Source: an uncultured Candidatus Saccharibacteria bacterium (lineage in GTDB: Bacteria; Patescibacteriota; Saccharimonadia; Saccharimonadales; EFPC-124). Taken from it: a stretch of 64,000 nucleotides of DNA. The stretch covers positions 7,820 through 71,819 of the forward strand of contig CAZJVU010000004.1 of NCBI GenBank assembly GCA_964550035.1. Reading direction: 5' to 3'. Below the pieces are notes generated by a model. That model saw only the letters and a program-made list of their open reading frames with translations, did no database searches and was not told where the DNA came from. This document shows, one piece after another, positions 4,726-52,309 of the stretch (its first letter is position 1; each line of letters starts with the position of its first letter). Both the position numbers and the translations under genes were made by a program.

Positions 4726-5082
4726 ATGTCCTTCAAGGATGTCTTGGCCTGGCTGTTCGCCAGAAAGACCAAGTCGGGGAGTCGGTATCTGTATGGACCG
4801 GATCAGGAGCGACTGCGCAAGCGGCTGGAAGGCCGGTGGAGCAGCAAGTACCACGAGGAGGATGGGAAGATCCATCTCCTCATCGATCCGGACGGCAACC
4901 CCACGAAGACCTACCCGCACGTTCACGTCATCCACGACGAGCGGGCGAACCAGGTGCACTTCGTCGCGTCAACCGGCGAGAGGAGGCGTGTCTACAGTAG
5001 CACGCTCTCCGGAGACGTGAGCGGAAACGAGGTGAACGCCGAGATCGACAAGGCGCTCGCTGAGCTCCGACGACACCTGTGA
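4726..5082 (+). CDS. Hypothetical protein (118 aa), GC-rich island
   Basis: GAGAGGA SD 6 nt upstream. Followed directly by a 17-bp hairpin. Confidence 0.55.
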   Translation: MSFKDVLAWLFARKTKSGSRYLYGPDQERLRKRLEGRWSSKYHEEDGKIHLLIDPDGNPTKTYPHVHVIHDERANQVHFVASTGERRRVYSSTLSGDVSGNEVNAEIDKALAELRRHL

Positions 5083-5084
5083 TC

Positions 5085-5129
5085 GAATGGGCCGCCGCCA
5101 ATATGTTGGCGGTTGGCGGCGGCCCATTC
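5085..5129 (+). terminator. Long GC hairpin after 4726..5082
   Basis: GAATGGGCCGCCGCCAA/TTGGCGGCGGCCCATTC 17-bp perfect stem. No U tract. Confidence 0.6.
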
Positions 5130-5176
5130 GTGGATACTTGTGGTGGGTCGCAGGGTGATTCATAATTGAACGCAGC

Positions 5177-5545: not shown

Positions 5546-5765
5546 TAGTAAATGCATCTTGCGTAAGACAAGTAAGTGGCCATCACCCACGAAGCAGCGG
5601 GAAGAAATCGTAACAGAGAGTAGAACCCGACGACCTCGAGCTCGTGAGACTCGACAACAAAGCGCAAATTCGAGTCACCTCAATTTGAAGCTGGATGGTA
5701 CCGCCCGAATATGTGCCGTCCGAACGCCTTTTATACTCCCGTAGTATAGAAGGCGCTCGGACATC
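5546..5765 (+). promoter_or_regulatory. T-box leader upstream of ileS
   Basis: TGGATGGTACCGCC (5692-5705) matches the T-box core ..GGUGGUACCGCG.., including UGGU for the tRNA NCCA end. AGAGAGTAG Stem-I-like box at 5615-5623. 20-position helix at 5718-5762. The specifier codon was not resolved. Confidence 0.6.
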
Positions 5766-5827
5766 ACTCGGGTTCCAGTATCAGGCAGAGGTGACTTTTA
5801 TTATGTAACGAACCCGAAGGAGACGCT

Positions 5828-8689: not shown

Positions 8690-8706
8690 TTCAGAAATAA
8701 AAAACT

Positions 8707-8754
8707 GCGTGTCTGGTGCGCCGCTCCCGGGGAGGGAGGGCGCACCAGACACGC
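8707..8754 (-). terminator. Hairpin between ileS and the 8757..9002 gene
   Basis: GCGTGTCTGGTGCGCC/GGCGCACCAGACACGC 16-bp stem. A T tract follows on the minus strand (AGTTTTTTATTT). Confidence 0.7.
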
Positions 8755-8756
8755 GT

Positions 8757-9356: not shown

Positions 9357-9378
9357 AATAAATAAGTTCAGTTTTTCT

Positions 9379-9412
9379 GAATGCTCCGGGCCGGGCAGGG
9401 CCCGGAGCATTC
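9379..9412 (-). terminator. GC hairpin after 9419..9718
   Basis: GAATGCTCCGGGCC/GGCCCGGAGCATTC 14-bp perfect stem. No U tract on the minus strand. Confidence 0.5.
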
Positions 9413-9418
9413 AAGTAG

Positions 9419-9718
9419 TCAGTCGTCGACGAGGGTCAGGTGGAAGCTCTGGAGCTTCGCCCGCGCGATGCCCAATGTCGCCGCGTTGTTTGGCGACATC
9501 ACGTTGAGCCTGACCACAGCTGCGACTTCGTAGGGCTTCATGCTGCCCTCGCCGTCGCCCCGCGTCATCGAACGGCCTTCGTCGTCGATGGAGACGACCT
9601 CGAGGTTGCGGTCCTCGAGGAACCGCTTGAAGACTGCCGGCGCGGTCGTTCGCCCCGTGGCCTTCACCGTGTGCTTCACCTTGATCGGCGGCGACTCGAT
9701 CAGTCGTTCTTCGGACAT
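9419..9718 (-). CDS. Hypothetical protein (99 aa), GC-rich island
   Basis: GAGGAAG SD. Soluble. No motif recognised. Confidence 0.55.
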   Translation of the reverse strand: MSEERLIESPPIKVKHTVKATGRTTAPAVFKRFLEDRNLEVVSIDDEGRSMTRGDGEGSMKPYEVAAVVRLNVMSPNNAATLGIARAKLQSFHLTLVDD

Positions 9719-10735: not shown

Positions 10736-10796
10736 CACGCACGAGGCACGATCTGATACAATGAGTGGGACAAAGAGAGGGAAGACTAAAACAATC

Positions 10797-11558
10797 ATGG
10801 CTGTTACGATAGCTGTCACAAACCAAAAGGGCGGCGTAGGCAAGACTACGACTGCAGTGAACATGGCTTACTATCTGTCAAAGATGGGCAGGTCGGTTCT
10901 TCTCGTAGACTTTGACCCGCAGGGGAATGCGACAAGTGGCCTTGGTATCGATAAATATGGTGTTGACTTGACGGTCATCGACCTCGTGCAGGAGAAAGCC
11001 AAGCTCGAGGATTGTATCGTCCACACCAAGCACAAGAAACTCGACTGCGTCGTCGCCACGCCGCAGCTGGCCAATGCAGAGGCCGAGCTAGCCAAAGCGC
11101 AGCACAGATTTACCCGTCTTAAGAATGCATTAGCTACTGCATCGTACGATTACATCCTGATCGATTGCCCGCCGTCATTAAGTCTGCTGACTGTGAATGG
11201 TTTGATCGCTGCGCAGTACGTGCTCTTGCCGGTCCAGGCGGAGTTCTATGCGCTGGAAGGGCTGGGACAACTACTCGAGACGATGCAGCTGGTCCGCAAA
11301 GGTCTCAATCCAACGCTCGAGCTGCTTGGTGTTGTCCTAACTATGGTTGATGCTCGCACGACGCTGTCCGGCCAGGTGCACGAAGAAGTGAAGAAGCATT
11401 TCCCAGGCAAAGTATTTACCACTGTAATTCCTCGCAACATTCGGCTTGCCGAGGCGCCAAGTCATGGTTTGCCGGTTGGTGCTTATGACCGCTGGTCTAA
11501 GGGTGCCCGTGCATACAAGGTTCTGGCCAAGGAGGTAACCCAACGTGTCGAAAGCTAA
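10797..11558 (+). CDS. parA: Chromosome partitioning ATPase ParA/Soj
   Basis: Deviant Walker A NQKGGVGKTT. Start taken at MAVTIAVTNQKGG, downstream of a TGATACAAT extended -10. Confidence 0.85.
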   Translation: MAVTIAVTNQKGGVGKTTTAVNMAYYLSKMGRSVLLVDFDPQGNATSGLGIDKYGVDLTVIDLVQEKAKLEDCIVHTKHKKLDCVVATPQLANAEAELAKAQHRFTRLKNALATASYDYILIDCPPSLSLLTVNGLIAAQYVLLPVQAEFYALEGLGQLLETMQLVRKGLNPTLELLGVVLTMVDARTTLSGQVHEEVKKHFPGKVFTTVIPRNIRLAEAPSHGLPVGAYDRWSKGARAYKVLAKEVTQRVES

Positions 11559-12435
11559 CTCCCCGAAGCGTGGCCTCGGCCGCGGATTCGATACACTTAT
11601 CCCAACGCAACTTCTGGATGAAGAATTTGACCCAACAGCGCAGCAGGACGAGCAGGTTTCGCAGCTTCGTCAGTTGAAAGTCAGCGATATCGAGGCAGAT
11701 GCCGACCAGCCGCGCCGACATTTTGATGAAGATGCGCTGAACGAGCTCGCGGCATCGCTAAAAGAGCACGGCGTGTTGCAGCCGATTGTGGTGATAGCGA
11801 AGGGGAATAAGTTTGAGATTGTGGCTGGTGAACGGCGCTGGCGTGCGGCGCAGATTGCGGGGCTCGATAAGATCCCAACGATTGTCCGAACGCTCACCAA
11901 TCAGCACCGCCTGGAGATTGCGCTGATCGAGAACCTCCAGCGTGAAGATCTCAACCCGCTCGAGACCGCCACGGCATACTACAAGCTCCAGCAGCAATTC
12001 AACCTAACGTTGGACGATATCGGCAAGCGCGTGGGCGGTAAGGCAGTGAGCACTATTAGCAACATTTTACGGTTGCTTGGATTGCCGAAAGAGGCAAAAG
12101 AAGCGCTTGTAGAAGGCAAGATCAGTGAAGGCCACGCTCGCCAGATTCTGGCTATCCACGAAGAAGATATTCAGAAGGAACTGCTCGAGCTGATCATCAA
12201 GAACGATTGGTCAGTCCGCAAAGCCGAGCAATACGTCGTGGGTTACAAAGAAGGCAAGAAGGATAAAGAAACCGCTGTCGCCAAGGTAAAGACCGAGACG
12301 ACCGAGACAAAGGCGTTGAGCAAGCGTCTTGGGGCCGATGTGAGCGTCAAGAACATGGCCAAGGGCGGGCGACTGGTGATTCAGTTTAAGAACCAAGAGG
12401 ATTTTGAGCGTATTACGGGCATGCTGCTCGGTTAG
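11545..12435 (+). CDS. parB: Chromosome partitioning protein ParB/Spo0J
   Basis: GERRWRAA ParB box. Overlaps the end of parA. Confidence 0.85.
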   Translation: MSKANSPKRGLGRGFDTLIPTQLLDEEFDPTAQQDEQVSQLRQLKVSDIEADADQPRRHFDEDALNELAASLKEHGVLQPIVVIAKGNKFEIVAGERRWRAAQIAGLDKIPTIVRTLTNQHRLEIALIENLQREDLNPLETATAYYKLQQQFNLTLDDIGKRVGGKAVSTISNILRLLGLPKEAKEALVEGKISEGHARQILAIHEEDIQKELLELIIKNDWSVRKAEQYVVGYKEGKKDKETAVAKVKTETTETKALSKRLGADVSVKNMAKGGRLVIQFKNQEDFERITGMLLG

Positions 12436-22319: not shown

Positions 22320-22348
22320 AGAGGTGAGGCCCCGGCCCTCAAACCTGG

Positions 22349-22385
22349 GGGGCGGCGCCGGCATTACGAATGTCGGCGCCGCCCC
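22349..22385 (+). terminator. GC hairpin after the peptidase gene
   Basis: GGGGCGGCGCCG/CGGCGCCGCCCC 12-bp perfect stem. No U tract. Confidence 0.5.
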
Positions 22386-24024: not shown

Positions 24025-24053
24025 TTTGAGTACAAAAGTTGGGGTGACACGCA

Positions 24054-24091
24054 GGCGGCGCCCTCGGCTCAGTGAGCTGGAGGGCGCCGCC
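24054..24091 (-). terminator. GC hairpin after 24111..24755
   Basis: GGCGGCGCCCTC/GAGGGCGCCGCC 12-bp perfect stem. Confidence 0.5.
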
Positions 24092-24110
24092 TGGCGCGTC
24101 GGGGTTCTCG

Positions 24111-25506: not shown

Positions 25507-25998
25507 ATGCCTTCTGTGCAGAGTGTCCGGTGCGACAAAGCGCTGTACCTCTTGAACATCCCCATACCGCCGCGATTCCAGCACGTGCTCGATTACGAGG
25601 AAACAGGCGCGACCGGGTTGTACTTACCGGAAGCGCTTGGCCACATCCCTGGGATGACCATCGGGAGCGGTACTGGCCCAGGCTACTTTTACACGTGGTT
25701 CGACGCAAGCCAGGTCGACGAGCAGCGAATCCTTCAGGGAGTCGCGGCGACGTTGAAGCGCTTGACCCCGGGGGCGCGAATCGCTGTGGACCTACAGCGG
25801 CGCTGGAGGGTGGTGATCGCCTTCCGATCCCCTGTGGTGAGAGAAGGCGACCAGCAGCGAGTCATCCAGCGACTGCGGACGGCCTTAGCTTACGACAAGT
25901 GGTGGTGGGAGGAGAACTTTACAACGCTTGTTGGGCGAATCCCACAACGGCCGAACCCTGCCCTCGGTGCCGCCCTCCAGCGGGCGGCGACCTTCTGA
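25507..25998 (+). CDS. Hypothetical protein (163 aa), GC-rich island between frr and uppS
   Basis: TTGACC-N17-TATAGT promoter at ~25447-25475 and a GGAGAG SD. Confidence 0.55.
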   Translation: MPSVQSVRCDKALYLLNIPIPPRFQHVLDYEETGATGLYLPEALGHIPGMTIGSGTGPGYFYTWFDASQVDEQRILQGVAATLKRLTPGARIAVDLQRRWRVVIAFRSPVVREGDQQRVIQRLRTALAYDKWWWEENFTTLVGRIPQRPNPALGAALQRAATF

Positions 25999-26010
25999 CG
26001 ACGTGCGCAT

Positions 26011-26041
26011 CGTGGCCCATACCCAAGCGGGATGGGCCACG
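26011..26041 (+). terminator. GC hairpin after 25507..25998
   Basis: CGTGGCCCAT/ATGGGCCACG 10-bp stem. Confidence 0.5.
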
Positions 26042-26095
26042 ATGTGCAGATACATGATTTTATTTCGAGACGACTTACCAGTATAATGACTAGGC

Positions 26096-32340: not shown

Positions 32341-32396
32341 CACGCTGGCGGCGACGGTCTTGGGTGCATCGCACTCGGGGCCGTCGCCACAGCGTG
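32341..32396 (+). terminator. Compound GC hairpin after the TerC gene
   Basis: CACGCT/AGCGTG outer stem and GGCGACGG/CCGTCGCC inner stem. Confidence 0.5.
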
Positions 32397-32493: not shown

Positions 32494-34014
32494 ATGGCAA
32501 CACTCAAAGATTATCGCGACGAACGCTTACGCAAGCTCGATGAGCTCAAGGCATTGAGGGTCAACCCTTACCCTGCAAATGTTGAGCGCACTAATACACT
32601 TGCAGAAATAACCGAAGATTTCTCTTCGTTTGAGGGCAAAGAAGTGAGTGTGGTAGGCCGTATTATGAACATTCGTCGCTTCGGTAAGTTAGCGTTTCTT
32701 GTGATTCGCGACGCGACGGGCACTATACAGCTTTTTCTGCGTGAAGGCACTGTTGAGGCGCTCGATGCCGAGAACAGCCAGCTTGGCATGGATCAGCTAC
32801 CGCTTCTTGACAGAGGTGATTTTGTTGAGGCTCACGGTCCGATTATTAAAACGCAGACCGGCGAGGTTTCCGTTGAGACGCATCGATTGCGACTTCTTAC
32901 TAAGGCGTTGCGCCCTTTACCGGCAGCACAGGACGAGTTCACAAATAAGGAAGAGCGCTTTCGCCGCCGCTATGTCGATACTAATGCTAACCCCGATGTC
33001 TTCCAGAGGTATGTACGCAGAAGCTTGTTTTGGCAAGCTACTCGCGAATTTCTGATGAGCGAAGGTTTTATAGAGATCAACATTCCTGTACTCGAAACTA
33101 CAACTGGTGGTGCCGATGCAACGCCGTTTTTGACCCACATGAATGCGCTCGATCAAGATTTTTATCTTCGAATCAGCCACGAATTGCCATTGAAACGCTT
33201 GCTCGTGGGTGGCTACGAAAAAGTGTTCGATATTGGCCCGCGGTTTCGCAACGAGAACTATTCAGACGAGCATCTTCCTGAGCATGTCGCTATGGAGTGG
33301 TACTGGGCGTACGCTGATTGGGAAAAGGGGATGAAGCTTACCGAGCGTTTGGTCCGTTCTGTAGCCGACAAGACGTGGGGTAGGCGACAATTCAAGCTAG
33401 CGAATGGTATGGAAGTGGACCTAGGCCCAGACGGTGAGGACTGGCCTCGAGTGAGTTTCGTCGATGTTATCAAAGAGCACTATGGGCTCGATGTATTCAC
33501 CTGCACGCTGGACGAGGTAAAAGTGCAGCTCCATAAGCACAACATAGAGGTGGAACAAACCGAGAATCGTTCGCGGGGGATTGATAAATTATGGAAGAAG
33601 ATTCGCACTACCATCGAAGGCCCTGCTTTCCTTGTAGATATTCCGACCTTTTTGCAACCACTTGCGAAGACTCAGGCTGGCAAGCCCGAACTTACCGAGC
33701 AGTTCAATATGCTTCTGGGCGGGACTGAGCTCTGCAAGGCCTACTCTGAACTGAACGATCCTATCGATCAGCTTAATCGCTTCAAAGAACAGCAAGCCAT
33801 GCGAGATGCCGGTGATGACGAGGCGATGATGCTCGATATTGATTATGTCGAAGCGCTGGAGTATGCTATGCCGCCGGCCTGTGGGTTCGGCTACTCTGAA
33901 CGCGTGTTTTGGTATCTCGAGGGTGTAACGGCCCGCGAAGGTGTGGTCTTTCCGCAACTTCGGCGCGAAGTCGACGAAGTAACTAAGGGAATCTATCCAG
34001 ACATCAAGCTCTAG
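32494..34014 (+). CDS. lysS: Lysyl-tRNA synthetase, class II
   Basis: OB-fold N-terminus (GRIMNIRRFGKLAFLVIRD), motif 2/3 region, 506 aa. Confidence 0.9.
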   Translation: MATLKDYRDERLRKLDELKALRVNPYPANVERTNTLAEITEDFSSFEGKEVSVVGRIMNIRRFGKLAFLVIRDATGTIQLFLREGTVEALDAENSQLGMDQLPLLDRGDFVEAHGPIIKTQTGEVSVETHRLRLLTKALRPLPAAQDEFTNKEERFRRRYVDTNANPDVFQRYVRRSLFWQATREFLMSEGFIEINIPVLETTTGGADATPFLTHMNALDQDFYLRISHELPLKRLLVGGYEKVFDIGPRFRNENYSDEHLPEHVAMEWYWAYADWEKGMKLTERLVRSVADKTWGRRQFKLANGMEVDLGPDGEDWPRVSFVDVIKEHYGLDVFTCTLDEVKVQLHKHNIEVEQTENRSRGIDKLWKKIRTTIEGPAFLVDIPTFLQPLAKTQAGKPELTEQFNMLLGGTELCKAYSELNDPIDQLNRFKEQQAMRDAGDDEAMMLDIDYVEALEYAMPPACGFGYSERVFWYLEGVTAREGVVFPQLRREVDEVTKGIYPDIKL

Positions 34015-36247: not shown

Positions 36248-36257
36248 ACTGACTCCA

Positions 36258-36299
36258 TGACCGCATGGTGCCTGCGGGAATGCGGGCGCCATGCGGTCA
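36258..36299 (+). terminator. GC hairpin after 35969..36247
   Basis: TGACCGCATGGTGCC/GGCGCCATGCGGTCA, 15 bp with one G-U pair. Confidence 0.5.
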
Positions 36300-36348
36300 C
36301 GGTATGTATTTGTAGAGTTACGTGATTTTATAAAGCAAAGGAGGAACG

Positions 36349-36855: not shown

Positions 36856-36917
36856 TAAAGATCAAATTATGGTATAGTATGTTTCGTTAGTGGCACCCCT
36901 TGTAGGAGGCTAATCGT

Positions 36918-37190
36918 ATGGCACTGTTCACTGTCCGTTTGGTGGCCCACGACCAGCCAGATGTGGTGGTCGTGGAGGAGTGTATGCAGGTGGCAACCCT
37001 CGCGGGCCTCAAGGAGCGATTTCGGCGGTGGGTTTTCTCAACGGGTACAGGCAGGATGCTGACGGAGCTCGAGAGTAACGACTCGGCTGTCATGACGTTC
37101 TCCGGTAGCCGAGAGGACGTTGCTAAGTACAAAGAGAATGTCGAGACCGTCTTCGTGGCGGGCCTGGCCGGCCTGACCCGTTTGCGCTGA
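36918..37190 (+). CDS. Hypothetical protein (90 aa)
   Basis: AGGAGG SD. Followed by a 17-bp hairpin. Confidence 0.5.
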   Translation: MALFTVRLVAHDQPDVVVVEECMQVATLAGLKERFRRWVFSTGTGRMLTELESNDSAVMTFSGSREDVAKYKENVETVFVAGLAGLTRLR

Positions 37191-37197
37191 CATTTGC

Positions 37198-37236
37198 GGG
37201 GTCGCATGGCCAGAGAGCGTCTGGCCATGCGACCCC
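37198..37236 (+). terminator. GC hairpin after 36918..37190
   Basis: GGGGTCGCATGGCCAGA/TCTGGCCATGCGACCCC 17-bp perfect stem. Confidence 0.55.
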
Positions 37237-37298
37237 AATAGATACCGAAGTTATTTTGCCGCTCGTAACAGATACGAGCTTATTGTATAATTAACCCC

Positions 37299-38599: not shown

Positions 38600-39121
38600 A
38601 TGAAGGCGATTACGACCGAGCGATACGACCAGGTCATCGCCGCGTCCGGCCTCAAACCAAAATTTGTGCGCGAACTGCGCCCGCGTTTTGACCTTGTGTC
38701 CGACTGGGAAGATCGAGAATTTTTGCCGATCACTAACCGTAGTGGAAACGATGGCGTGCTATGGGTCGAGCACGGCGGTGGCGTGTATGTGCTACCGTAT
38801 TCGCTGAGTCGTGGCATCATCGATAAAGCCAGCGGCCGGGCGCGACCAGTGATCTGCGACCTCTGCTACACGCAGCAACTTGGCACGGCCGCGGCGCGAA
38901 TAAGTTTTGCCATGCCGGGCAGGGGAGGGGCGAGTCGAAGCTTGCTCTGCTGCGCCAACCTTGACTGTAACGAGCACGCCCGCGGTAAGACGAAGGCGAG
39001 TCTGCGCTCCAAAACGCAACTGCGCGAAAGCATCTCCGTCGGAGACCGAGTCTTACGTCTACATCGTCGACTCGGCGAATTGCTGGACCTACTCCAAGCC
39101 GAAAAAGTAATTTCCGTCTAA
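38600..39121 (+). CDS. FBP-domain protein (EF-G-binding protein family, C-terminal treble-clef zinc finger)
   Basis: CDLC...CCANLDCNEH cysteine pattern. Starts 2 nt after the serS stop. Confidence 0.5.
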   Translation: MKAITTERYDQVIAASGLKPKFVRELRPRFDLVSDWEDREFLPITNRSGNDGVLWVEHGGGVYVLPYSLSRGIIDKASGRARPVICDLCYTQQLGTAAARISFAMPGRGGASRSLLCCANLDCNEHARGKTKASLRSKTQLRESISVGDRVLRLHRRLGELLDLLQAEKVISV

Positions 39122-39123
39122 AG

Positions 39124-39170
39124 TGAGCGAAGCCCCGAGCGGGCCGGAAGATTCCGGCCACACTCGGGGC
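39124..39170 (-). repeat. Cassette-boundary hairpin R1
   Basis: TGAGCGAAGCCCCGAGCGGGCCGGAAGATTCCGGCCACACTCGGGGC, 20 nt downstream of the gene 1 stop. Confidence 0.85.
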
Positions 39171-39190
39171 TTTTTGGCGCGTCTCTGACG

Positions 39191-39424
39191 CTACTGGTTG
39201 CGTGATTTCCGCTTCCTCCTCAGGAGGATGGGAATGACCACAACGGCGGCGCCACTGATGTAGGCAAGTGCCAGCAACGCGCTGTAGCCCTCCTGCAAAT
39301 GCAACAATGCGACGGACCCGAGTGCTGTACCGGCCGTCAAGGCGGCGTAGGCGACTGCCTTCCGGCGAGCACCGACGGTGAGGCCGGTGATGCAGCCCCC
39401 GAGGATCAGCAGTATCCACCACAT
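39191..39424 (-). CDS. Array gene 1: small 3-TM protein with a polybasic tail (77 aa)
   Basis: GAAGGAG SD. TM1 GGCITGLTVGARRK. Tail LLRRKRKSRNQ. Confidence 0.7.
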   Translation of the reverse strand: MWWILLILGGCITGLTVGARRKAVAYAALTAGTALGSVALLHLQEGYSALLALAYISGAAVVVIPILLRRKRKSRNQ

Positions 39425-39463
39425 GGGTGTGACTCCTTCGATGGTGAGCCTGACGTGCCTGGT

Positions 39464-39757
39464 TCAGCGCTTGCCCTTCTTCGGCCGCTTGGGCCGGATC
39501 CGGCGGTTGGGTCGGTCGGCGCCGAAGATGTGGCCGATGAAACCGCCGCACGCCAGAGCCGCAGGGAAGCTGAGCCACTGCAGCGTCGTGAGCTCGAACG
39601 GTTTGCACCACACCAGGATGATGGCCACGGCGCCGACGAACGCCACCGCGCCCAGCAGCTCGTGCGTGTTCTTCTCGTGCCACCGTCCCTTGAAGAAACA
39701 GTAGCCTGCCAGCACCATGAATGCGCCAGCGAGACCAAATGCGACCTGTGCGGTCAT
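39464..39757 (-). CDS. Array gene 2: small 3-TM protein with a polybasic tail (97 aa)
   Basis: AGAGGGG SD. Tail RPNRRIRPKRPKKGKR. Confidence 0.7.
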   Translation of the reverse strand: MTAQVAFGLAGAFMVLAGYCFFKGRWHEKNTHELLGAVAFVGAVAIILVWCKPFELTTLQWLSFPAALACGGFIGHIFGADRPNRRIRPKRPKKGKR

Positions 39758-39797
39758 TGGTACCCCTCTGAGGAATGGATGGACAGAACGTTTAATG

Positions 39798-39825
39798 ATT
39801 ATAGTATAATTGTAGATATTGTCAA
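39798..39825 (-). promoter_or_regulatory. Cassette A promoter
   Basis: Minus strand TTGACA-N16-TATAAT. Confidence 0.6.
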
Positions 39826-39855
39826 TTTAGTAGGGCAGAGTCATACCCTAAAAAT

Positions 39856-39903
39856 TGAGCGAAGCCCCGAGCGGGCCGGAAAATATCCGGCCACACTCGG
39901 GGC
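39856..39903 (-). repeat. Cassette-boundary hairpin R2
   Basis: TGAGCGAAGCCCCGAGCGGGCCGGAAAATATCCGGCCACACTCGGGGC. Confidence 0.85.
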
Positions 39904-39938
39904 TTGTTGTACGTACCGACCGTGTGCGCGGGTCGGCT

Positions 39939-40202
39939 TCAGGACCCTTCGGCGTGCTTGCGCTTTTTCCGCCGCAGCTTCACCGAAGTAGTGACGAAGG
40001 TTGCGAGCACGAGGGTGGCTGACCAGGCGGCGACCGTGCCCACGTTCTCACCCTTGAGGGGGTCGACCCCTCGCGCCAGCAGGAGCGCCCAGGTGCCCAG
40101 CATGAGGCACGTGCCTGCGACCAACCGCGACACATCTCGGTTGATGGCGCCAACGACGACGCCGGTCACGAGGGCGAGGCCGACTGCTATCACAAAGGTC
40201 AT
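39939..40202 (-). CDS. Array gene 3: small 3-TM protein with a polybasic tail (87 aa)
   Basis: AAGGAG SD. VDPLKGE turn. Tail KLRRKKRKHAEGS. Confidence 0.7.
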   Translation of the reverse strand: MTFVIAVGLALVTGVVVGAINRDVSRLVAGTCLMLGTWALLLARGVDPLKGENVGTVAAWSATLVLATFVTTSVKLRRKKRKHAEGS

Positions 40203-40231
40203 CTACTTTACTCCTTGTTGGTGCAGGATGT

Positions 40232-40504
40232 TCAGGGGTGACGCTTGGACTTGCGCAGTTGCTTGAGCCGCCTCGCACCTACAGCGCTCATGACCGCTGA
40301 GGAGACTGTGACGCTGACCACCAAGGCGATCAGAAAGTTTGCCGTTTCCGGCTCGTTTGCGGGGTCGTGTCCCACAATCACGAGCGCCAACCACGCAGCG
40401 GCCAAGATGACCGCCCCGGCGAGGAGCTTCTGCCAGGCACGTAGGGAGGCAGCGGCGAGTATGCCGCACAGAAACCCTGTGATGACAAATACGACTACAG
40501 CCAT
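40232..40504 (-). CDS. Array gene 4: small 3-TM protein with a polybasic tail (90 aa from ATG 40504)
   Basis: AGAAGG SD before the internal ATG. GHDPANE turn. Tail RRLKQLRKSKRHP. Confidence 0.65.
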   Translation of the reverse strand: MAVVVFVITGFLCGILAAASLRAWQKLLAGAVILAAAWLALVIVGHDPANEPETANFLIALVVSVTVSSAVMSAVGARRLKQLRKSKRHP

Positions 40505-40613
40505 GACGTAACCTTCTTGTTCGGCTCGGGTTTGTGCTTCGATGATCGCGCTGCACATGGAGGGCAGCTGTCAGTACCGCACATCCTTATGCAGGGGTAG
40601 AGCGTACTATATT

Positions 40614-40642
40614 CTTATAGTATAAGTTCAGTATTATGTCAA
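40614..40642 (-). promoter_or_regulatory. Cassette B promoter
   Basis: Minus strand TTGACA-N17-TATAAG. Confidence 0.6.
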
Positions 40643-40670
40643 TGTAACTAGCGTACAGCTTGGCATAAAA

Positions 40671-40717
40671 TGAGCGAAGCCCCGAGCGGGCCGAAGATAT
40701 CCGGCCACACTCGGGGC
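40671..40717 (-). repeat. Cassette-boundary hairpin R3
   Basis: TGAGCGAAGCCCCGAGCGGGCCGAAGATATCCGGCCACACTCGGGGC. Confidence 0.85.
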
Positions 40718-40738
40718 TTTTGTTGCTGATCGATGCTT

Positions 40739-41029
40739 CTAGCGGCTCCAGCGCTTGGGCTTGGGACGAACGTCCTTCAGCCTCTTGCGCTTGGCCAGCT
40801 TGAGCTTCACGATGCCGGCGACGATCGCCGCGAGCCCAAGGCTGAACAGCCAGGCGAGCACCACGGTCTTGTCGGGGTTGGGGAAGGGGTTGAGCCCCGT
40901 CAGCATCAGGATGATCTGAGAGATCAGCATGATGAACCCTACGGCCATCAGTCGGGGCACCACCTTTCGGACGCCGACGGCGGCGATGCCGGTCAGAATC
41001 CCCGACGCGATCACCAGAAGTACCAGCAT
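40739..41029 (-). CDS. Array gene 5: small 3-TM protein with a polybasic tail (96 aa)
   Basis: AGGAGG SD. TM1 ASGILTGIAAVGVRK. Tail KLKLAKRKRLKDVRPKPKRWSR. Confidence 0.7.
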   Translation of the reverse strand: MLVLLVIASGILTGIAAVGVRKVVPRLMAVGFIMLISQIILMLTGLNPFPNPDKTVVLAWLFSLGLAAIVAGIVKLKLAKRKRLKDVRPKPKRWSR

Positions 41030-41053
41030 GATTCCTCCTACGACGGTGGTGCG

Positions 41054-41320
41054 TCAGCGACGCGGCGTCTGGGCTGCCGTCTCGCGCTTCCGCTTCACGA
41101 TCACCGCGATGAAGGCGGCGATGATGCTGCTGCCCGTGAAGGTGGCCGCCATCGCGGCGTTCTGCATCGGCTCGAACACCAGCGCCTTCGCGGCGAGGCC
41201 CGCGCCCAGGAGCATGAACATGGCACCGCAGATCCGGAAGAACTGAAGCTTGGAGCCGAGGGCCCAGAAGCCGCAGAGCGCTCCGGTGCCGATCAGCAGG
41301 GGCCAGAGGTAAAGGGGCAT
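41054..41320 (-). CDS. Array gene 6: small 3-TM protein with a basic tail (88 aa)
   Basis: AAGGAG SD. VFEPMQN turn. Tail VKRKRETAAQTPRR. Confidence 0.7.
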   Translation of the reverse strand: MPLYLWPLLIGTGALCGFWALGSKLQFFRICGAMFMLLGAGLAAKALVFEPMQNAAMAATFTGSSIIAAFIAVIVKRKRETAAQTPRR

Positions 41321-41359
41321 CGGTATGTCTCCTTAGTATGGTGGATACAGCGTATTGTA

Positions 41360-41388
41360 TTTATAGGATAAGTTCAATATTTTGTCAA
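41360..41388 (-). promoter_or_regulatory. Cassette C promoter
   Basis: Minus strand TTGACA-N17-TATAAA. Confidence 0.6.
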
Positions 41389-41406
41389 TTCTACTGTGTC
41401 TAGAAA

Positions 41407-41454
41407 TGAGCGAAGCCCCGAGCGGGCCGAAGAATATCCGGCCGCACTCGGGGC
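41407..41454 (-). repeat. Cassette-boundary hairpin R4
   Basis: TGAGCGAAGCCCCGAGCGGGCCGAAGAATATCCGGCCGCACTCGGGGC. Confidence 0.85.
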
Positions 41455-41482
41455 TTGGAACGCGCTGGTCGACGGGCGCAGC

Positions 41483-41755
41483 CTACTTGCCATGTGTGTC
41501 GTCGTACCACTCACGAGTGAAGTATCCAGCGAGTGCGCCCACCGCCGCACTGCCGGCGAAGACGACGATGAAGAGCAACCAAGAGGATTGCGCCTGCGCC
41601 TGCAGCTGCTCGAACTTTGGGTCGAACGGGTACAGGGCGGCCCCCGCGGCCACCATGATGCTGACGGCCACCGCCATGGCGAGACCGAAGCGTCTGATGA
41701 AGCCGATGGCCACACCACCGAGCGCGCCGGCAACAACCAAGAACGTGGTGATCAT
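41483..41755 (-). CDS. Array gene 7: small 3-TM protein (90 aa); the only member without a polybasic tail
   Basis: AGAGAGG SD. TM1 VAGALGGVAIGFIRR. PFDPKFE turn. Ends in YFTREWYDDTHGK. Confidence 0.7.
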   Translation of the reverse strand: MITTFLVVAGALGGVAIGFIRRFGLAMAVAVSIMVAAGAALYPFDPKFEQLQAQAQSSWLLFIVVFAGSAAVGALAGYFTREWYDDTHGK

Positions 41756-41783
41756 GAGTACACCTCTCTGCTGTAGGGAGCGG

Positions 41784-42044
41784 TTATCGTTTACTCTTCT
41801 TTTGACCGCCCTTCAGGACGCCGATGACGGTAAGCGTGATGAACGCCACGCTGCCATAGATCACCCCCACGGCGATGAGCTTCGACCACTTGGTGGGGTC
41901 GAAGCCGACGCAGAGCAGGGTGACGAAGCCGCCCGCCGTGATGACGGCTGCCACCATGACAGCGACATCTTCGCGCCGAATGACACCAAATGCGAGTCCG
42001 CACAAGATGCCGGCGACCAAGGTCACCAGAAAGCTCGGGAACAT
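41784..42044 (-). CDS. Array gene 8: small 3-TM protein with a basic tail (86 aa from ATG 42044)
   Basis: AAGGA SD. TM1 VAGILCGLAFGVIRR. GFDPTKW turn. Tail KGGQKKSKR. Confidence 0.65.
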   Translation of the reverse strand: MFPSFLVTLVAGILCGLAFGVIRREDVAVMVAAVITAGGFVTLLCVGFDPTKWSKLIAVGVIYGSVAFITLTVIGVLKGGQKKSKR

Positions 42045-42130
42045 GGCTCGAGTATCCTTGTCTGTGAAGTCGGCGCGCGCTAAGACTGAAGCGCGATTCT
42101 GTTCTCGCACTGAGGCGAGAAGCTTATACA

Positions 42131-42159
42131 TTTATAGTATTAAATAATTGCTTTGTCAA
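42131..42159 (-). promoter_or_regulatory. Cassette D promoter
   Basis: Minus strand TTGACA-N17-TATAAA. Confidence 0.6.
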
Positions 42160-42179
42160 TGTTTTCTTGGTGTCTAAAA

Positions 42180-42224
42180 TGAGCGAAGCCCCGAGCGGGC
42201 CGGGTTTCCGGCCACACTCGGGGC
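42180..42224 (-). repeat. Cassette-boundary hairpin R5
   Basis: TGAGCGAAGCCCCGAGCGGGCCGGGTTTCCGGCCACACTCGGGGC. Confidence 0.85.
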
Positions 42225-42267
42225 TTGTTGCGCCGCACGACGGACGCGCTGTGGGTTGGTCGACTTC

Positions 42268-42552
42268 TCAGCGTGAGCGCTTCTTGGGCTTGAACTTCCG
42301 CTTCACGATGGCCGCGGTGACGAGCCAGGGGATCCCGGCTGCGATACCCAGTACTAGCGTGGCCACCCCGTCCCGGCCGTACAGGATTCCCATTCCGGCA
42401 GTGGCCACGGCGGTGAGAAACATGAGCCAGCCGAACATCTTGAAGAGCAGCGTGACCCGCGGGTGGGTGGCCAAAACGCCATACGCAGCACTGCCGAAGA
42501 CCGCGAGCAGCCAGAACCACCAGGGCACATTCGCAAACGTGAGCGTGATCAT
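42268..42552 (-). CDS. Array gene 9: small 3-TM protein with a polybasic tail (94 aa; alternative start ATG 42570)
   Basis: Tail VKRKFKPKKRSR. Only gene in cassette E. Confidence 0.65.
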   Translation of the reverse strand: MITLTFANVPWWFWLLAVFGSAAYGVLATHPRVTLLFKMFGWLMFLTAVATAGMGILYGRDGVATLVLGIAAGIPWLVTAAIVKRKFKPKKRSR

Positions 42553-42584
42553 CTCCCTTGTGCAGTACACGATAGTACTGCAAA

Positions 42585-42613
42585 ACTATAGGATGGAATC
42601 ACGTGTCTGTCAA
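42585..42613 (-). promoter_or_regulatory. Cassette E promoter
   Basis: Minus strand TTGACA-N17-TATAGT. Confidence 0.6.
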
Positions 42614-42645
42614 TAGTTCAACTCGTAGCGTGCTCTCTATAAAGC

Positions 42646-42683
42646 GGCGTCTGAGCGGGCCAGTGTGGCCGCGCCCAGACGCC
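42646..42683 (-). repeat. Cassette-boundary hairpin R6 (diverged copy with a compensated stem)
   Basis: GGCGTCTG-AGCGGGCC-agtgt-GGCCGCGC-CCAGACGCC. It retains GAGCGGGCC and the fold, but the outer stem has a different sequence. Confidence 0.7.
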
Positions 42684-42697
42684 GTACGGACGGTCGG

Positions 42698-42946
42698 TTA
42701 CTTCTTGTTCTTCTTGGTGATGTAGGCCCTCACGAAGCCCACGATCATCGCCGAAACGACGGTACTGATCAGGAGGGCCAGCCAGGCCGAATCATCCTTG
42801 TGCGCATCGTACCCGAGGCTGTACAGGGCGATGCCCGTGGCCACCGCAATGACAAAAGCGATGAGAATCGCAAGCGACACTTGCCGGAGGCCACCGATCA
42901 GGGCGCCGCATGCAGTACCGGCGACGATTGTTATGAAGTAGAACAT
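42698..42946 (-). CDS. Array gene 10: small 3-TM protein with a basic tail (82 aa from ATG 42946)
   Basis: GGGAG SD 5 nt upstream. TM1 VAGTACGALIGGLRQ. GYDAHKDD turn. Tail ITKKNKK. Confidence 0.65.
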   Translation of the reverse strand: MFYFITIVAGTACGALIGGLRQVSLAILIAFVIAVATGIALYSLGYDAHKDDSAWLALLISTVVSAMIVGFVRAYITKKNKK

Positions 42947-42980
42947 AAAAACTCCCAACACGGACGCTGAGGTCAATAGC

Positions 42981-43013
42981 TTTATATAAGTATAGATTTG
43001 TCTGTGTCGTCAA
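42981..43013 (-). promoter_or_regulatory. Cassette F promoter (weaker match)
   Basis: Minus strand TTGACG followed 18-19 nt later by TTATAT/TATATA. Confidence 0.4.
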
Positions 43014-43028
43014 GCGATATCCAGCGAA

Positions 43029-43076
43029 TGAGCGAAGCCCCGAGCGGGCCGAAGGGTATCCGGCCGCACTCGGGGC
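43029..43076 (-). repeat. Cassette-boundary hairpin R7
   Basis: TGAGCGAAGCCCCGAGCGGGCCGAAGGGTATCCGGCCGCACTCGGGGC. Confidence 0.85.
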
Positions 43077-43104
43077 TTGGGTCGGCGTGTCTGGTTGGAC
43101 TCAC

Positions 43105-43377
43105 CTAGTGCCGTTTTTTGGATCGACGACCGGGCTGGCTGCCACCCAGGCACCCGCATACACTGCCGCATGCGAACAGGGTGAAGACGGCGGCCCATTG
43201 CGCCAGACTGTACTCCAGTGCTTGCCCCCATACGCACATGACGATGGCGGCCGATACCAGCGCCAGCACTCCAGCCCGTGTGATGGCGATCTTCGTGCGG
43301 GAGAATCCTCTGAAGATGCAGAAGCCAGCTCCGGCGATGAGCAGGCTCGTGATGACGCCCGCAAGTTGTACGGACAC
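43105..43377 (-). CDS. Array gene 11: small 3-TM protein with a basic tail (90 aa, GTG start)
   Basis: AAGGAGG SD 3 nt before GTG 43377. Tail GRRSKKRH. The longer track ORF runs through gene 12 in another frame. Confidence 0.6.
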   Translation of the reverse strand: MSVQLAGVITSLLIAGAGFCIFRGFSRTKIAITRAGVLALVSAAIVMCVWGQALEYSLAQWAAVFTLFACGSVCGCLGGSQPGRRSKKRH

Positions 43378-43415
43378 GGCCCTCCTTGAGGCTCGGATGA
43401 AGCGTACGGCGCAGG

Positions 43416-43673
43416 CTACTTCTTGGCCTTGCGCTTCTTCTTGCTGTCCTTCGCGATGGTGACGATCGTCGTGACGACAGAGGTGCTGGCCAGGAAGGCC
43501 AGCCAGGGCAGAATGTCCTCGCGCGCGTCGTATTCGAGGCCAAACAGCACAAAGGACGTGATCAGCACGATGGCACCGTCGATGGCGAACGCGACGCGCA
43601 GTCGCTGGACGCCACCGAGCACGACGCCACACAGCACTCCTGAGAGGACGGTGACCAAGTAGTACACGAACAT
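43416..43673 (-). CDS. Array gene 12: small 3-TM protein with a polybasic tail (85 aa)
   Basis: AAAGGAG SD. TM1 LSGVLCGVVLGGVQR. EYDAREDILPW turn. Tail KDSKKKRKAKK. Confidence 0.7.
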   Translation of the reverse strand: MFVYYLVTVLSGVLCGVVLGGVQRLRVAFAIDGAIVLITSFVLFGLEYDAREDILPWLAFLASTSVVTTIVTIAKDSKKKRKAKK

Positions 43674-43710
43674 GACTGACTCCTTTAACGTGGATGTTCA
43701 GTTCATTGTC

Positions 43711-43739
43711 TTTATAGTATTTATTTATGAGTTTGTCAA
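43711..43739 (-). promoter_or_regulatory. Cassette G promoter
   Basis: Minus strand TTGACA-N17-TATAAA. Confidence 0.6.
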
Positions 43740-43753
43740 ATTATAAGCTCGTA

Positions 43754-43800
43754 TGAGCGAAGCCCCGAGCGGGCCGGAAAGTTCCGGCCACACTCGGGGC
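43754..43800 (-). repeat. Cassette-boundary hairpin R8
   Basis: TGAGCGAAGCCCCGAGCGGGCCGGAAAGTTCCGGCCACACTCGGGGC. Confidence 0.85.
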
Positions 43801-43832
43801 TGTATGGCGTTGGAGCTGCGACCCTGTAGGGT

Positions 43833-44087
43833 TTAGCGCCGGCGTTTGTCTTGCTTTTTGCGCATGACGGCGAGCACGACGATCGTGATCACCACGCTGC
43901 CCACTGCGCTGCCCAACCAGGCGAGCAGTACGTTGACATTCGAGGGTTCGAAGCCGGCGCCCACCAGAATGAACGCGGTGACGACGGTGATGCCGACTGC
44001 GATCGGCAGGTAAATGATCGCCCGCTGGAGCGCACCCAGCACAATGCCCGTCAGGATGCCTGCGACGATCACAATCAGAAAGAGCAT
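43833..44087 (-). CDS. Array gene 13: small 3-TM protein with a polybasic tail (84 aa from ATG 44087)
   Basis: GGAGGG SD. TM1 VAGILTGIVLGALQR. GFEPSNVN turn. Tail MRKKQDKRRR. Confidence 0.65.
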   Translation of the reverse strand: MLFLIVIVAGILTGIVLGALQRAIIYLPIAVGITVVTAFILVGAGFEPSNVNVLLAWLGSAVGSVVITIVVLAVMRKKQDKRRR

Positions 44088-44126
44088 GACTGTTTTCCCT
44101 CCAAGAGCGGTAACGAGTACGATATA

Positions 44127-44155
44127 GTTATAGTATATAGAGATGGCATCGTCAA
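44127..44155 (-). promoter_or_regulatory. Cassette H promoter
   Basis: Minus strand TTGACG-N17-TATAAC. Confidence 0.55.
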
Positions 44156-44238
44156 ATATTACTTTATGCTCGCGGAGTTGCGCGAGGGTTGTTATAATAA
44201 AAGGAGCCAAATCAGGGAAGAAAGGTGTAGCGAGTAGC

Positions 44239-47286: not shown

Positions 47287-47311
47287 ACATATAAGCTCAG
47301 ATAGGTGTGGC

Positions 47312-47342
47312 GGGCGTCGACGAATCATTCTCATCGACGCCC
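47312..47342 (-). terminator. GC hairpin after 47366..47671
   Basis: GGGCGTCGA/TCGACGCCC stem. Confidence 0.45.
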
Positions 47343-47365
47343 GGCCACGGCGTGTGGTCAGCGGT

Positions 47366-52232: not shown

Positions 52233-52254
52233 CCTAGTTGAGTGGTAGAGCTTT

Positions 52255-52289
52255 GTCCCGCCCACACGGAGATTACCGTGGGGCGGGAC
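52255..52289 (-). terminator. GC hairpin after 52310..52741
   Basis: GTCCCGCCCACACGG/CCGTGGGGCGGGAC. Confidence 0.5.
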
Positions 52290-52309
52290 AGTCGGCAGCG
52301 CCTCTGATG

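Follow-up and report, generated by a model that had tools for sequence, protein, structure and literature searches.

The subject of this report is a hairpin that is repeated eight times in a 64 kb stretch of the genome of an uncultured Candidatus Saccharibacteria bacterium (this whole stretch is called the window, and positions are those of the window unless another contig is named). The hairpins belong to an array of small genes on the minus strand (39124..44166), a lineage-specific insertion of ~5.0 kb between TAAAG, the end of the FBP gene, and GCTCGCG of the hpf promoter hairpin. The array comprises 13 genes and 8 hairpins in eight units, each of which reads on the minus strand: promoter, 5′ untranslated region (UTR) with a Shine-Dalgarno sequence, one or two small genes, hairpin. 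Every unit has one near-consensus sigma-70 promoter (TTGAC[AG]-N16-19-TATAxx). The hairpin begins 14–43 nt past the last stop codon of its unit and the next promoter follows 14–30 nt beyond. The same placement, 3′ of a minus-sense small gene and ahead of the next promoter or of the FBP gene, is found for the 8 window copies and, in three other genomes, for 14 full-length copies and two copies cut by contig ends; the array was analyzed with a structural alignment of 22 copies across the four genomes.

In the direction of transcription the array begins with unit H, whose promoter-like site (44127..44155; TTGACG-17-TATAAC) precedes gene W01 (43833..44087) for an 84 aa three-helix membrane protein, a called gene in contig L001, and hairpin w7 (43742..43806; 60 bits with the covariance model described below). 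Unit G has its promoter-like site at 43711..43739 (TTGACA-17-TATAAA; repeat family D2), the genes W02 (43416..43673, 85 aa) and W03 (43105..43377, 90 aa; P0004) and hairpin w6 (43017..43082; 69 bits). Unit F follows with 42983..43013 (TTGACG-19-TATATA; orthologous to a promoter in L005), W04 (42698..42946, 82 aa) and the variant hairpin w8 (42633..42687; 34 bits), the ortholog of which lies at 952–1010 of L005. Unit E consists of 42585..42613 (TTGACA-17-TATAGT), W05 (42268..42552, 94 aa) and w5 (42168..42230; 73 bits), and unit D of 42131..42159 (TTGACA-17-TATAAA), W06 (41784..42044, 86 aa), W07 (41483..41755, 90 aa) and w4 (41395..41460; 68 bits). The promoter-like site of unit C (41360..41388; TTGACA-17-TATAAA) is followed by W08 (41054..41320, 88 aa), W09 (40739..41029, 96 aa) and w3 (40659..40723; 74 bits), and that of unit B (40614..40642; TTGACA-17-TATAAG) by W10 (40232..40504, 90 aa), W11 (39939..40202, 87 aa) and w2 (39844..39909; 71 bits). 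Unit A, next to the FBP gene, has a promoter-like site with 12/12 consensus matches (39798..39825; TTGACA-16-TATAAT), the genes W12 (39464..39757, 97 aa) and W13 (39191..39424, 77 aa) and the terminal hairpin w1 (39112..39176; 69 bits). Hairpin w1 adjoins the stop codon of the FBP gene (TAA, 39119–39121) and on the plus strand has the form of a canonical terminator for this gene (GGGGCTTTTTGG). The 5′ UTR of this terminal unit (ATTAAACGTTCTGTCCATC...) is almost identical in the window (39758–39797) and in L004 (6040–6081), far above the surrounding spacer.

The 13 proteins of the window (77–97 aa) have three predicted helices and a Lys/Arg-rich tail. They are pairwise only 14–26% identical, which bears out the claim, made in an earlier note on this DNA, that the genes between the copies have diverged. 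AlphaFold, run on the 13-sequence alignment, predicts three helices (pLDDT 70), an arrangement too simple for fold comparison to be informative. With Pfam, NCBIfam, PHROGs and PADLOC none of the 13 gave a match above noise; an identity as holin was dropped, one match at E = 0.007 in 1 of 13 proteins not being significant. A profile search of 1.84 billion representative proteins returned only the 13 window members and seven others. Five of these (P0007, P0015, P0017, P0018, P0019) were traced to two syntenic contigs, and the other two, P0016 and P0020, resemble genes of one of the two. A plus-strand open reading frame (ORF) starting from an ATG in the hairpin flank (MSEAPSGP...) was also considered and rejected: a ribosome-binding site is missing, the start codon is not constant, and the frame runs across hairpins.

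On the plus strand the seven near-identical copies start at 39124, 39856, 40671, 41407, 42180, 43029 and 43754, with a start-to-start spacing of 725–849 nt; exactly these seven, which had been listed before, were returned by a repeat finder. The eighth copy, described earlier as a compensated variant at 42646–42683, is real. This copy, w8 (GGCGUCUGGGCG-C-GGCC...), keeps all 10 outer pairs, 7 of which are altered relative to the main type: six on both sides (A:U to G:C twice, G:C to C:G, C:G to G:C, and C:G to U:A twice) and one on one side only (A:U to G:U). All eight copies are confined to 39112–43806 and lie behind minus-strand genes. The 15-mer GCCCCGAGCGGGCCG has 7 exact matches in the window and, at ≤3 mismatches, 15 matches in total, a number equalled by zero shuffles of the window; all the inexact matches carry 2–3 mismatches, and the two nearest (17368 and 61268) fall inside coding sequence and have no hairpin.

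Read as minus-strand RNA, the main hairpin is AAGCCCCGAGUG-[U/C]-GGCCGG-loop-CCGGCC-CGCUCGGGGCUU, with a stem of 18–19 bp and a free energy of −34 to −42 kcal/mol. All eight window copies fold as single hairpins (−36 to −42 kcal/mol; z-scores −5.5 to −8.3 versus shuffles). The terminal loop has 3–7 unpaired bases and the segment between the GGCC blocks 4–11 nt. The internal loop reported previously, CG opposite ACA or GCA, resolves on the gene-strand RNA into two base pairs, U:G and G:C, and a single bulged U or C; it appeared because the non-transcribed strand had been read. This leaves without support the argument that the loop, being invariant, would call for more than a plain terminator; nor is the irregularity invariant, since the bulged base of relatives can be U, C or A, and the bulge is shifted in stem type II and moved in type IV (see below). 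The flank 3′ of the stem, thought to be single-stranded, is so in (C)GCUCA and the U-run behind it but not in its first two bases, as these, UU, are paired with an AA that precedes the stem. The near-absence of variation outside the loop is borne out: the seven main copies differ there only in the bulged base (U in four, C in three) and in one pair at the top of the inner stem (G:C or G:U).

Among the 22 aligned copies the outer stem GCCCCGAG/CUCGGGGC is identical in 19, and the 20th has one C-to-U change by which a wobble pair is retained. GCUCA is present in 20 of the 22, in four genomes and with four stem types, and is missing from w8, one of the two type III copies; a single bulge in the 5′ arm is found in nearly all. 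An alternative fold in which GCUC of the flank pairs with the 5′ arm was discarded, because it is impossible in type IV, where the flank is nevertheless kept. The GCUCA motif and the near-universal bulge could be a processing or binding signal, or they could be co-converted baggage. As to the strand, the gene-strand RNA is more stable than the antisense RNA in 18 of 19 copies, and in the structural alignment every wobble pair is G:U on the gene strand and an A-C mismatch on the other. The restriction of G:U wobbles to the gene strand, the higher stability of the sense RNA and the variable loop length fit a structure active as gene-strand RNA and not a double-stranded protein-binding site or folded DNA.

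The copies fall into four stem types: type I, GAGUG[Y]GGCC ... GGCCCGCUC; type II, GAGCG[U/A]GGCC ... GGCCAGCUC, in which the bulge is shifted; type III, GGCGUCYGRGCG[C]GGCC, represented by w8 and its L005 ortholog; and type IV, the terminal copy of L021, in which the middle of the stem is rebuilt and the bulge lies elsewhere. The structural register of the 22 copies was set manually, the type IV copy being left out, and a copy spanning L005 and L021 was omitted, its join via an 8-nt overlap not being trusted. In this register 346 of 352 stem cells are paired and two-sided compensation is seen at 6 of 16 stem positions. In the model-fitted alignment 91.7% of the cells are paired and the covariation score is 0.151 versus 0.098 in shuffles (0 of 500 reach it), partners slid out of register scoring far lower; it should be noted that the type III copies have a wrongly placed gap in their 3′ arm in both the MAFFT and the covariance-model alignments, so that the pair counts of the tools understate the pairing. 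The two orthologous type III copies differ from each other by one more C:G to U:A double change and by two single changes that preserve a wobble. Compensation at six stem positions, wobbles on the gene strand and a loop of varying length agree with the strong constraint that had been considered for the element, and show, at the level of sequence comparison, that its pairing is maintained by selection.

The hairpin, to judge from the alignments, is conserved between genomes as well. The orthologous terminal hairpins of the window and L004 differ at ~2 of 44 non-loop positions, and the adjoining 3′ UTR, spacer and genes are 58–84% identical. The synonymous divergence (pS) between window and L004 is 0.51 for SerS, 0.64 for SecA and 0.77 for FBP, that is, synonymous sites are near saturation. 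The window contains, besides the array, ~14 other long GC-rich hairpins, each unique, which with −33 to −49 kcal/mol are among the strongest folds (1909–1964, 2289–2344, 5077–5132, 5713–5768, 8701–8756, 9377–9432, 22329–22384, 24045–24100, 25997–26052, 32341–32396, 36249–36304, 37185–37240, 47293–47348 and 52245–52300). Where their position was compared with the ORF list, they are located directly behind a gene or between genes; a U-tract is missing from most of them, and some have a single bulge. Three single-copy hairpins served as controls for the same two genomes: two of them, the TerC terminator and the one that precedes the PMSR gene, are conserved to about the same degree, and in the third, the secA terminator, three or four pairs have changed, with compensation. 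Long stem-loops at gene ends are a normal punctuation of this lineage and generally under strong constraint, and GC-rich hairpins are apparently what usually marks the end of a gene in this genome.

With a covariance model built from 19 copies, 174 kb were searched (the window, the related arrays and ~100 kb from array-free relatives). Every strong match lay inside an array and on the gene strand; weak matches were the reverse strands of the same copies or unrelated secA terminators. Such a scan had been suggested as a way of finding out whether copies always lie 3′ of this gene family, which is true across the 174 kb, and a scatter over unrelated 3′ ends, named as the opposite outcome, was not seen, no copy lying outside the arrays. 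A two-arm pattern run against 185,579 species genomes found no true copy; its single match (CCCGAG-CG-GGCC-TTCG-GGCC-ACA-CTCGGG, 28 nt, in a groundwater metagenome-assembled genome of 70% GC) was judged to be due to chance. On the minus strand of contig L003 of that genome (4754–4781) the hairpin reads CCCGAGUGUGGCC-GAA-GGCCCGCUCGGG, with the same arrangement of U:G pair and bulge, and it also sits just past a small membrane-protein gene, again probably by chance. Among the metagenome contigs of the Joint Genome Institute (JGI), 8 matches to the 3′ arm plus flank were obtained, none with a complementary 5′ arm and most like GC-rich coding sequence, and the viral contigs gave 0 matches to the hairpin pattern. 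Rfam had 0 matches in the window at gathering scores, and for the array, with E up to 5, two chance-level matches. Since the arrays hold all true copies and the scans and Rfam were empty, the element is lineage- and locus-specific and not a dispersed repeat of the repetitive extragenic palindrome (REP) type, as far as the 64 kb read from this genome can show.

The array site is occupied in four related metagenomic genomes, always between hpf-secA and the fusB-like FBP gene plus serS. In addition to the window genome these are genome A (L004, with L002; 9 genes, 6 hairpins), genome B (fragments L005, L006 and L021; at least 6 hairpins) and genome D (L023 and L024; 5 genes, 4 hairpins). In other relatives that are equally close or slightly more distant (L020, L015–L019, L022 and the P0034 contig), the FBP gene is directly followed by hpf. 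The empty site in L020 (855–870) reads TAAAG-GCTCGCG, and the array of the window fills exactly this junction. Neither beside any array nor among the window proteins scanned was a recombinase or integrase found; the surroundings are housekeeping genes, and rRNA and tRNA genes are absent from the window. The array (39100–44200) is transcribed opposite to almost all its neighbors, and the cumulative GC skew climbs steadily across the window, which contains parAB at 10.8–12.4 kb (parA/parB, 10761–12435). The steady rise of the skew together with the opposite transcription means that the array is probably head-on to replication, an orientation that might contribute to its fast change.

SecA and SerS are 93–96% identical among the four array-bearing genomes, and yet these have few modules of promoter, gene and hairpin in common. 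The related modules, with amino-acid identity in brackets, are W12/A08 (78%), W13/A09 (47%) and W06/A02 (46%) between window and L004, W04/B03 (74%) between window and L005, and A07/B04 (79%) and A02/B01 (77%) between genomes A and B. BLAST homology blocks at the nucleotide level span from hairpin to hairpin, and adjacent modules are unrelated. Cassette permutations that coincide with the repeat, recommended earlier as something to look for, do therefore occur: homology between genomes breaks at the hairpins. Differences are found even next to the FBP gene: the module there encodes two proteins (97 + 77 aa) in both the window and L004, a protein of 88 aa in L021, and two again, of 96 + 98 aa, in L023. 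Upstream of A07/B04 the junction lies between the stem and GCUCA, the stem being of type II in L004 and type III in L005 and the flank GCTCATTTTTAGGAATTATTCAA common to both, and the W12/A08 homology begins at the −35 box instead of at a hairpin. Junctions that are close to the hairpin but at no fixed point are better explained by homologous or illegitimate exchange than by site-specific recombination. The ratio of nonsynonymous to synonymous divergence (dN/dS) of the shared modules is high, 0.17–0.86. For W12/A08, pS is 0.23, which is below that of the flanking housekeeping genes (paralogs saturate near 0.6) and which may reflect codon bias (GC content at third codon positions 0.82) or an exchange of modules between lineages in more recent time. 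In L005 a shortened version (1113–1255) of a 96 aa gene that is intact in L023 (2287–2577) directly precedes the A07-type gene; this looks like the decay of one member inside a module.

Within each genome the copies have become alike. The seven main-type copies of the window all carry TTCGCTCA, that is GGGGC-UUC-GCUCA with an A:U closing pair, and the five internal copies of L004 all carry GTTGCTCA, that is GGGGC-GUU-GCUCA with a compensating C:G closing pair; the terminal L004 copy retains the window form, and three L004 copies have the loop UA(C/U)CCA in common. Stem types I–IV and flank alleles (TTTTATGAACTTAT, TTTTTAGGAATTAT, TTTTAGAAATTAT) are combined as a mosaic, which is the recognizable signature of concerted evolution with exchange breakpoints that would lie inside the element. 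Of three explanations offered previously for the uniformity of the copies, homogenization by gene conversion is the one favored by genome-specific variants common to the copies and by the mosaic combinations, and independent insertion at each cassette end is not supported, no copy having been found beyond the arrays in the 174 kb. Furthermore, what follows GCUCA in internal copies is similar to the sequence at the 3′ end of the FBP gene in the same genome. For example, in L004 TTTTATGAACTTAT matches at 14 of 14 positions in copy a5 and at 12 of 14 in copy a1, and in the window three copies have TTTAGAC, resembling the end of the FBP gene. The FBP end must be the source of these bases, because the FBP proteins of array-free genomes end in homologous residues, and this also refutes the converse idea that the FBP protein captured its C-terminus from the element. 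Internal hairpins followed by relics of the FBP end were thus either copied from the FBP-adjacent hairpin or were formerly in its place, which points to growth of the array in place, and not to independent insertion, as the probable history.

From these findings it appears probable (roughly 60%) that the element is a transcript-end hairpin, a terminator or stabilizer, that is homogenized by gene conversion and in addition provides homology for module turnover. The hairpin would be the 3′-end stem-loop of one minus-strand transcription unit. In the mRNA it would act as a factor-independent "I-shaped" terminator, with a U-run that is at most weak and displaced, would block 3′ exonucleases and so protect the transcript of its unit, and would insulate this unit from the next promoter. 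U-less I-shaped hairpins less than 50 nt from stop codons have been described as the predominant form of terminator in mycobacteria (PMC12288462). The terminal copy probably also ends the convergent serS-FBP operon, because only there does a U5 follow the stem on the other strand. From the comparisons, the near-invariance of the element results from selection on pairing plus concerted evolution by gene conversion and unequal exchange between direct repeats, which keeps the copies of one genome uniform. Homologous exchange at the hairpin, flank and promoter, the only well-conserved stretches in the array and for this reason the likely sites, would add, delete and reshuffle promoter-gene-hairpin modules, from which it follows that the homology of modules between genomes breaks at hairpins.

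Several points weigh against this interpretation. Termination without a U-tract is disputed even for mycobacteria: a U-tract is required according to Czyz et al. (2014), as cited in the review PMC12288462. Behind the stem, the gene strand reads UUCGCUCAUUUU, i.e., UU, six other bases and only then the U-run, and a terminator consensus scan did not call the gene-strand hairpins, canonical terminators not being found there. GCUCA is more conserved than the stem, and a flank of this kind is not predicted by a terminator model; the single bulge in the 5′ arm of nearly all copies points in the same direction. Further copies may also lie beyond the parts of the genomes that were searched, which amount to 64 kb in the present genome and to ≤15 kb in each of the related ones with an array.

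Hairpin, bulge and GCUCA-U-run could together be the recognition site of one RNA-binding protein or ribonuclease that co-regulates, processes or stabilizes the transcripts of the units, which we regard as unlikely. It would explain why GCUCA occurs in four genomes with all stem types (save the type III copy w8), why the bulge is nearly universal and why the outer stem is the same in 19 of 22 copies although synonymous sites between the genomes are near saturation (pS 0.5–0.77). However, types III and IV replace most of the stem sequence, the bulge moves, w8 does without GCUCA, and a candidate gene for the partner is not linked to the array. Concerted evolution and a possibly recent module exchange (W12/A08, pS 0.23) could hold the sequence constant as well, and some of the flank sequence that lies beyond GCUCA is similar to the end of the FBP gene (3′), as a relic rather than a motif would be. 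Still less can be said for a promoter on the plus strand, in which TAAAAT-GAGC of the flank would be the −10 box for antisense RNAs that start with the hairpin and repress the upstream unit. YTAAAATGAGC is present on the plus strand in most copies and one copy matches TTGTCA-16-TAAAAT; this is, however, the only copy with a suitably spaced −35 box, those of the others that were read by eye having no −35-like hexamer at a workable spacing (12–13 nt if any), and the G:U pattern favors the other strand, so that this possibility is very improbable.

The breaks in homology raise the question of whether the hairpin is a DNA site. Hairpin plus GCUCA could be a single-stranded-DNA site like attC, at which an unlinked recombinase excises and inserts promoter-gene-hairpin cassettes. 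The architecture is indeed analogous (imperfect hairpin, extrahelical base, variable loop, location at the 3′ end of each cassette), content and order of the modules differ at ~95% SecA identity with breaks at hairpins, one junction falls between stem and GCUCA (copy a4 versus b3), the stem staying with the upstream gene and GCTCATTTTTAGGAATTATTCAA with the downstream module, and some relatives have the array and others, no less closely related, a clean empty site. Despite this, a site-specific system is quite unlikely. There is no integrase or recombinase beside the arrays or among the window proteins tested, and no RYYYAAC/GTTRRRY core; the cassettes come with a promoter each, belong as paralogs to a single family and occupy a single chromosomal site. 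The positions of the junctions vary, as in W12/A08 with homology opening at the −35 box, and the wobbles that favor gene-strand RNA are mismatches in DNA. Insertion of a REP-like mobile palindrome, or of a miniature inverted-repeat transposable element (MITE), independently behind each unit would likewise account for an imperfect palindrome with a conserved flanking motif, repeated extragenically. The copies, however, have one orientation and one locus, with none further in the 174 kb and no true copy in the species genomes, JGI metagenome contigs and viral contigs; a RAYT or IS200-type gene was not among the window proteins tested, a GTAG motif is absent, and the relics of the FBP end indicate local duplication, which makes such insertion highly improbable. 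Finally, we consider it unlikely that hairpin plus GCUCA is a defined joint at which complete promoter-gene-terminator cassettes for small membrane proteins are swapped, added proximally to FBP and deleted, in an exchange between related small-genome bacteria that would use a folded-strand or short-homology mechanism and no linked integrase. The breaks at hairpins, the stem/flank junction, the FBP relics and the low synonymous divergence of a shared module are compatible with it.

If the favored reading is right, in which local duplication has multiplied a transcript-end stem-loop and gene conversion keeps its copies uniform, then the hairpin itself is ordinary. It is perhaps the locus that deserves the attention of specialists: its three-helix membrane proteins form an orphan family that was met, among 1.84 billion representative proteins, in only four metagenomic genomes, all related to one another, and its genes are organized in self-contained promoter-gene-hairpin modules, the content of which is almost wholly different at 95% SecA identity. 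Should modules really exchange at the hairpins, cassette-like variation could here arise in a simple way and without a recombinase, and the locus would be a clean natural case of concerted evolution limited to a regulatory RNA of ~60 nt; if the hairpin were a defined exchange joint, a hypervariable repertoire of envelope proteins would result. Two other differences between the genomes were noticed in the neighborhood of the array. The lysyl-tRNA synthetase encoded between TerC and DUF2207 is of class II in the window (32494–34014, plus strand; NF001756, TIGR00499) and of class I (TIGR00467/PF01921) at the corresponding position of L004 (11667–13193, minus strand) and of the more distant L017 (3586–5109), which suggests that a non-orthologous enzyme has taken over in place. 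The interval from the PMSR gene to serS measures 443 nt in the window (36856–37298), with an ORF of 90 aa (36918–37190, plus strand) and a perfect 17-bp hairpin (37198–37236), and only 18 nt in L004.

How does the element compare with known systems? With canonical L-shaped terminators it has in common the GC-rich stem-loop 14–43 nt past the stop codon, but not the U-run directly after the stem (GGGGC-UU-CGCUCA-UUUU); a U5 is found only on the FBP strand of the terminal copy. It would fit better with the I-shaped terminators and 3′ stabilizers of high-GC Gram-positive bacteria, which are likewise long, GC-rich, U-less stem-loops used at many genes: a stable U-less hairpin less than 50 nt from the stop codon is present here, and hairpins of this form seem to be general in the genome. 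The difference is that one sequence is used eight times in tandem and carries a conserved GCUCA-U-run 3–4 nt past the stem. REPs and bacterial interspersed mosaic elements (BIMEs) of enterobacteria are also imperfect palindromes repeated in 3′ UTRs with a conserved flanking motif. REPs stabilize the upstream mRNA and are recombination sites. They occur, however, by the hundreds, genome-wide, in both orientations and linked to RAYT, whereas the element here is restricted to one array and one orientation; neither dispersal (174 kb, 64 kb of them from this genome) nor GTAG was found, and Pfam scans of the window proteins and the gene calls of the related loci revealed only housekeeping genes and no RAYT (Y1 HUH transposase). 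The attC sites of integrons, including the chromosomal repeats of Vibrio, resemble the element in that the 3′ boundary of a cassette is formed by a conserved imperfect hairpin, which has an extrahelical base and a loop that varies, a likeness in shape that is by analogy only, and in the variation of cassette content between close relatives. In contrast to integrons, IntI, attI, Pc and R-box are not found here, the flanks of the arrays in the four genomes being hpf-secA and FBP-serS and not an adjacent intI. The R″/R′ core is absent from the 22 aligned copies (the nearest sequence, GTTGCTC, fails at the RRR positions), the wobbles are of the RNA type, and the cassettes are not promoterless and unrelated, as each unit has its TTGACA-N16-19-TATAxx and all genes are paralogs. 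Nor is the array a CRISPR, since the spacing of 380–850 nt is filled by promoters and genes and there are no cas genes. The rAID-1 arrays of Bacteroidales (bioRxiv 10.1101/471110) are arrays of small genes with repetitive intergenic sequences and strain-variable content, too; they have, however, a gene for a XerD-like recombinase at their head, unrelated immunity genes and a skewed low GC content, whereas in the present array, the head of which adjoins the hpf promoter, a recombinase was not found, all genes are paralogs and the GC content is slightly raised. In tandem gene families of the KRTAP1 type, for which a preprint (10.1101/282418) reports contrasting patterns of evolution of coding and flanking regions, flanks are homogenized within a genome and coding parts diverge, as here; KRTAP1 is eukaryotic, and the homogenized stretch of the present array is only ~60 nt long and is itself a structured RNA element. 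Most likely, then, the element is not of a new kind but one with the working of a terminator, the evolution of a locally amplified REP, and the shape and position of an attC site.

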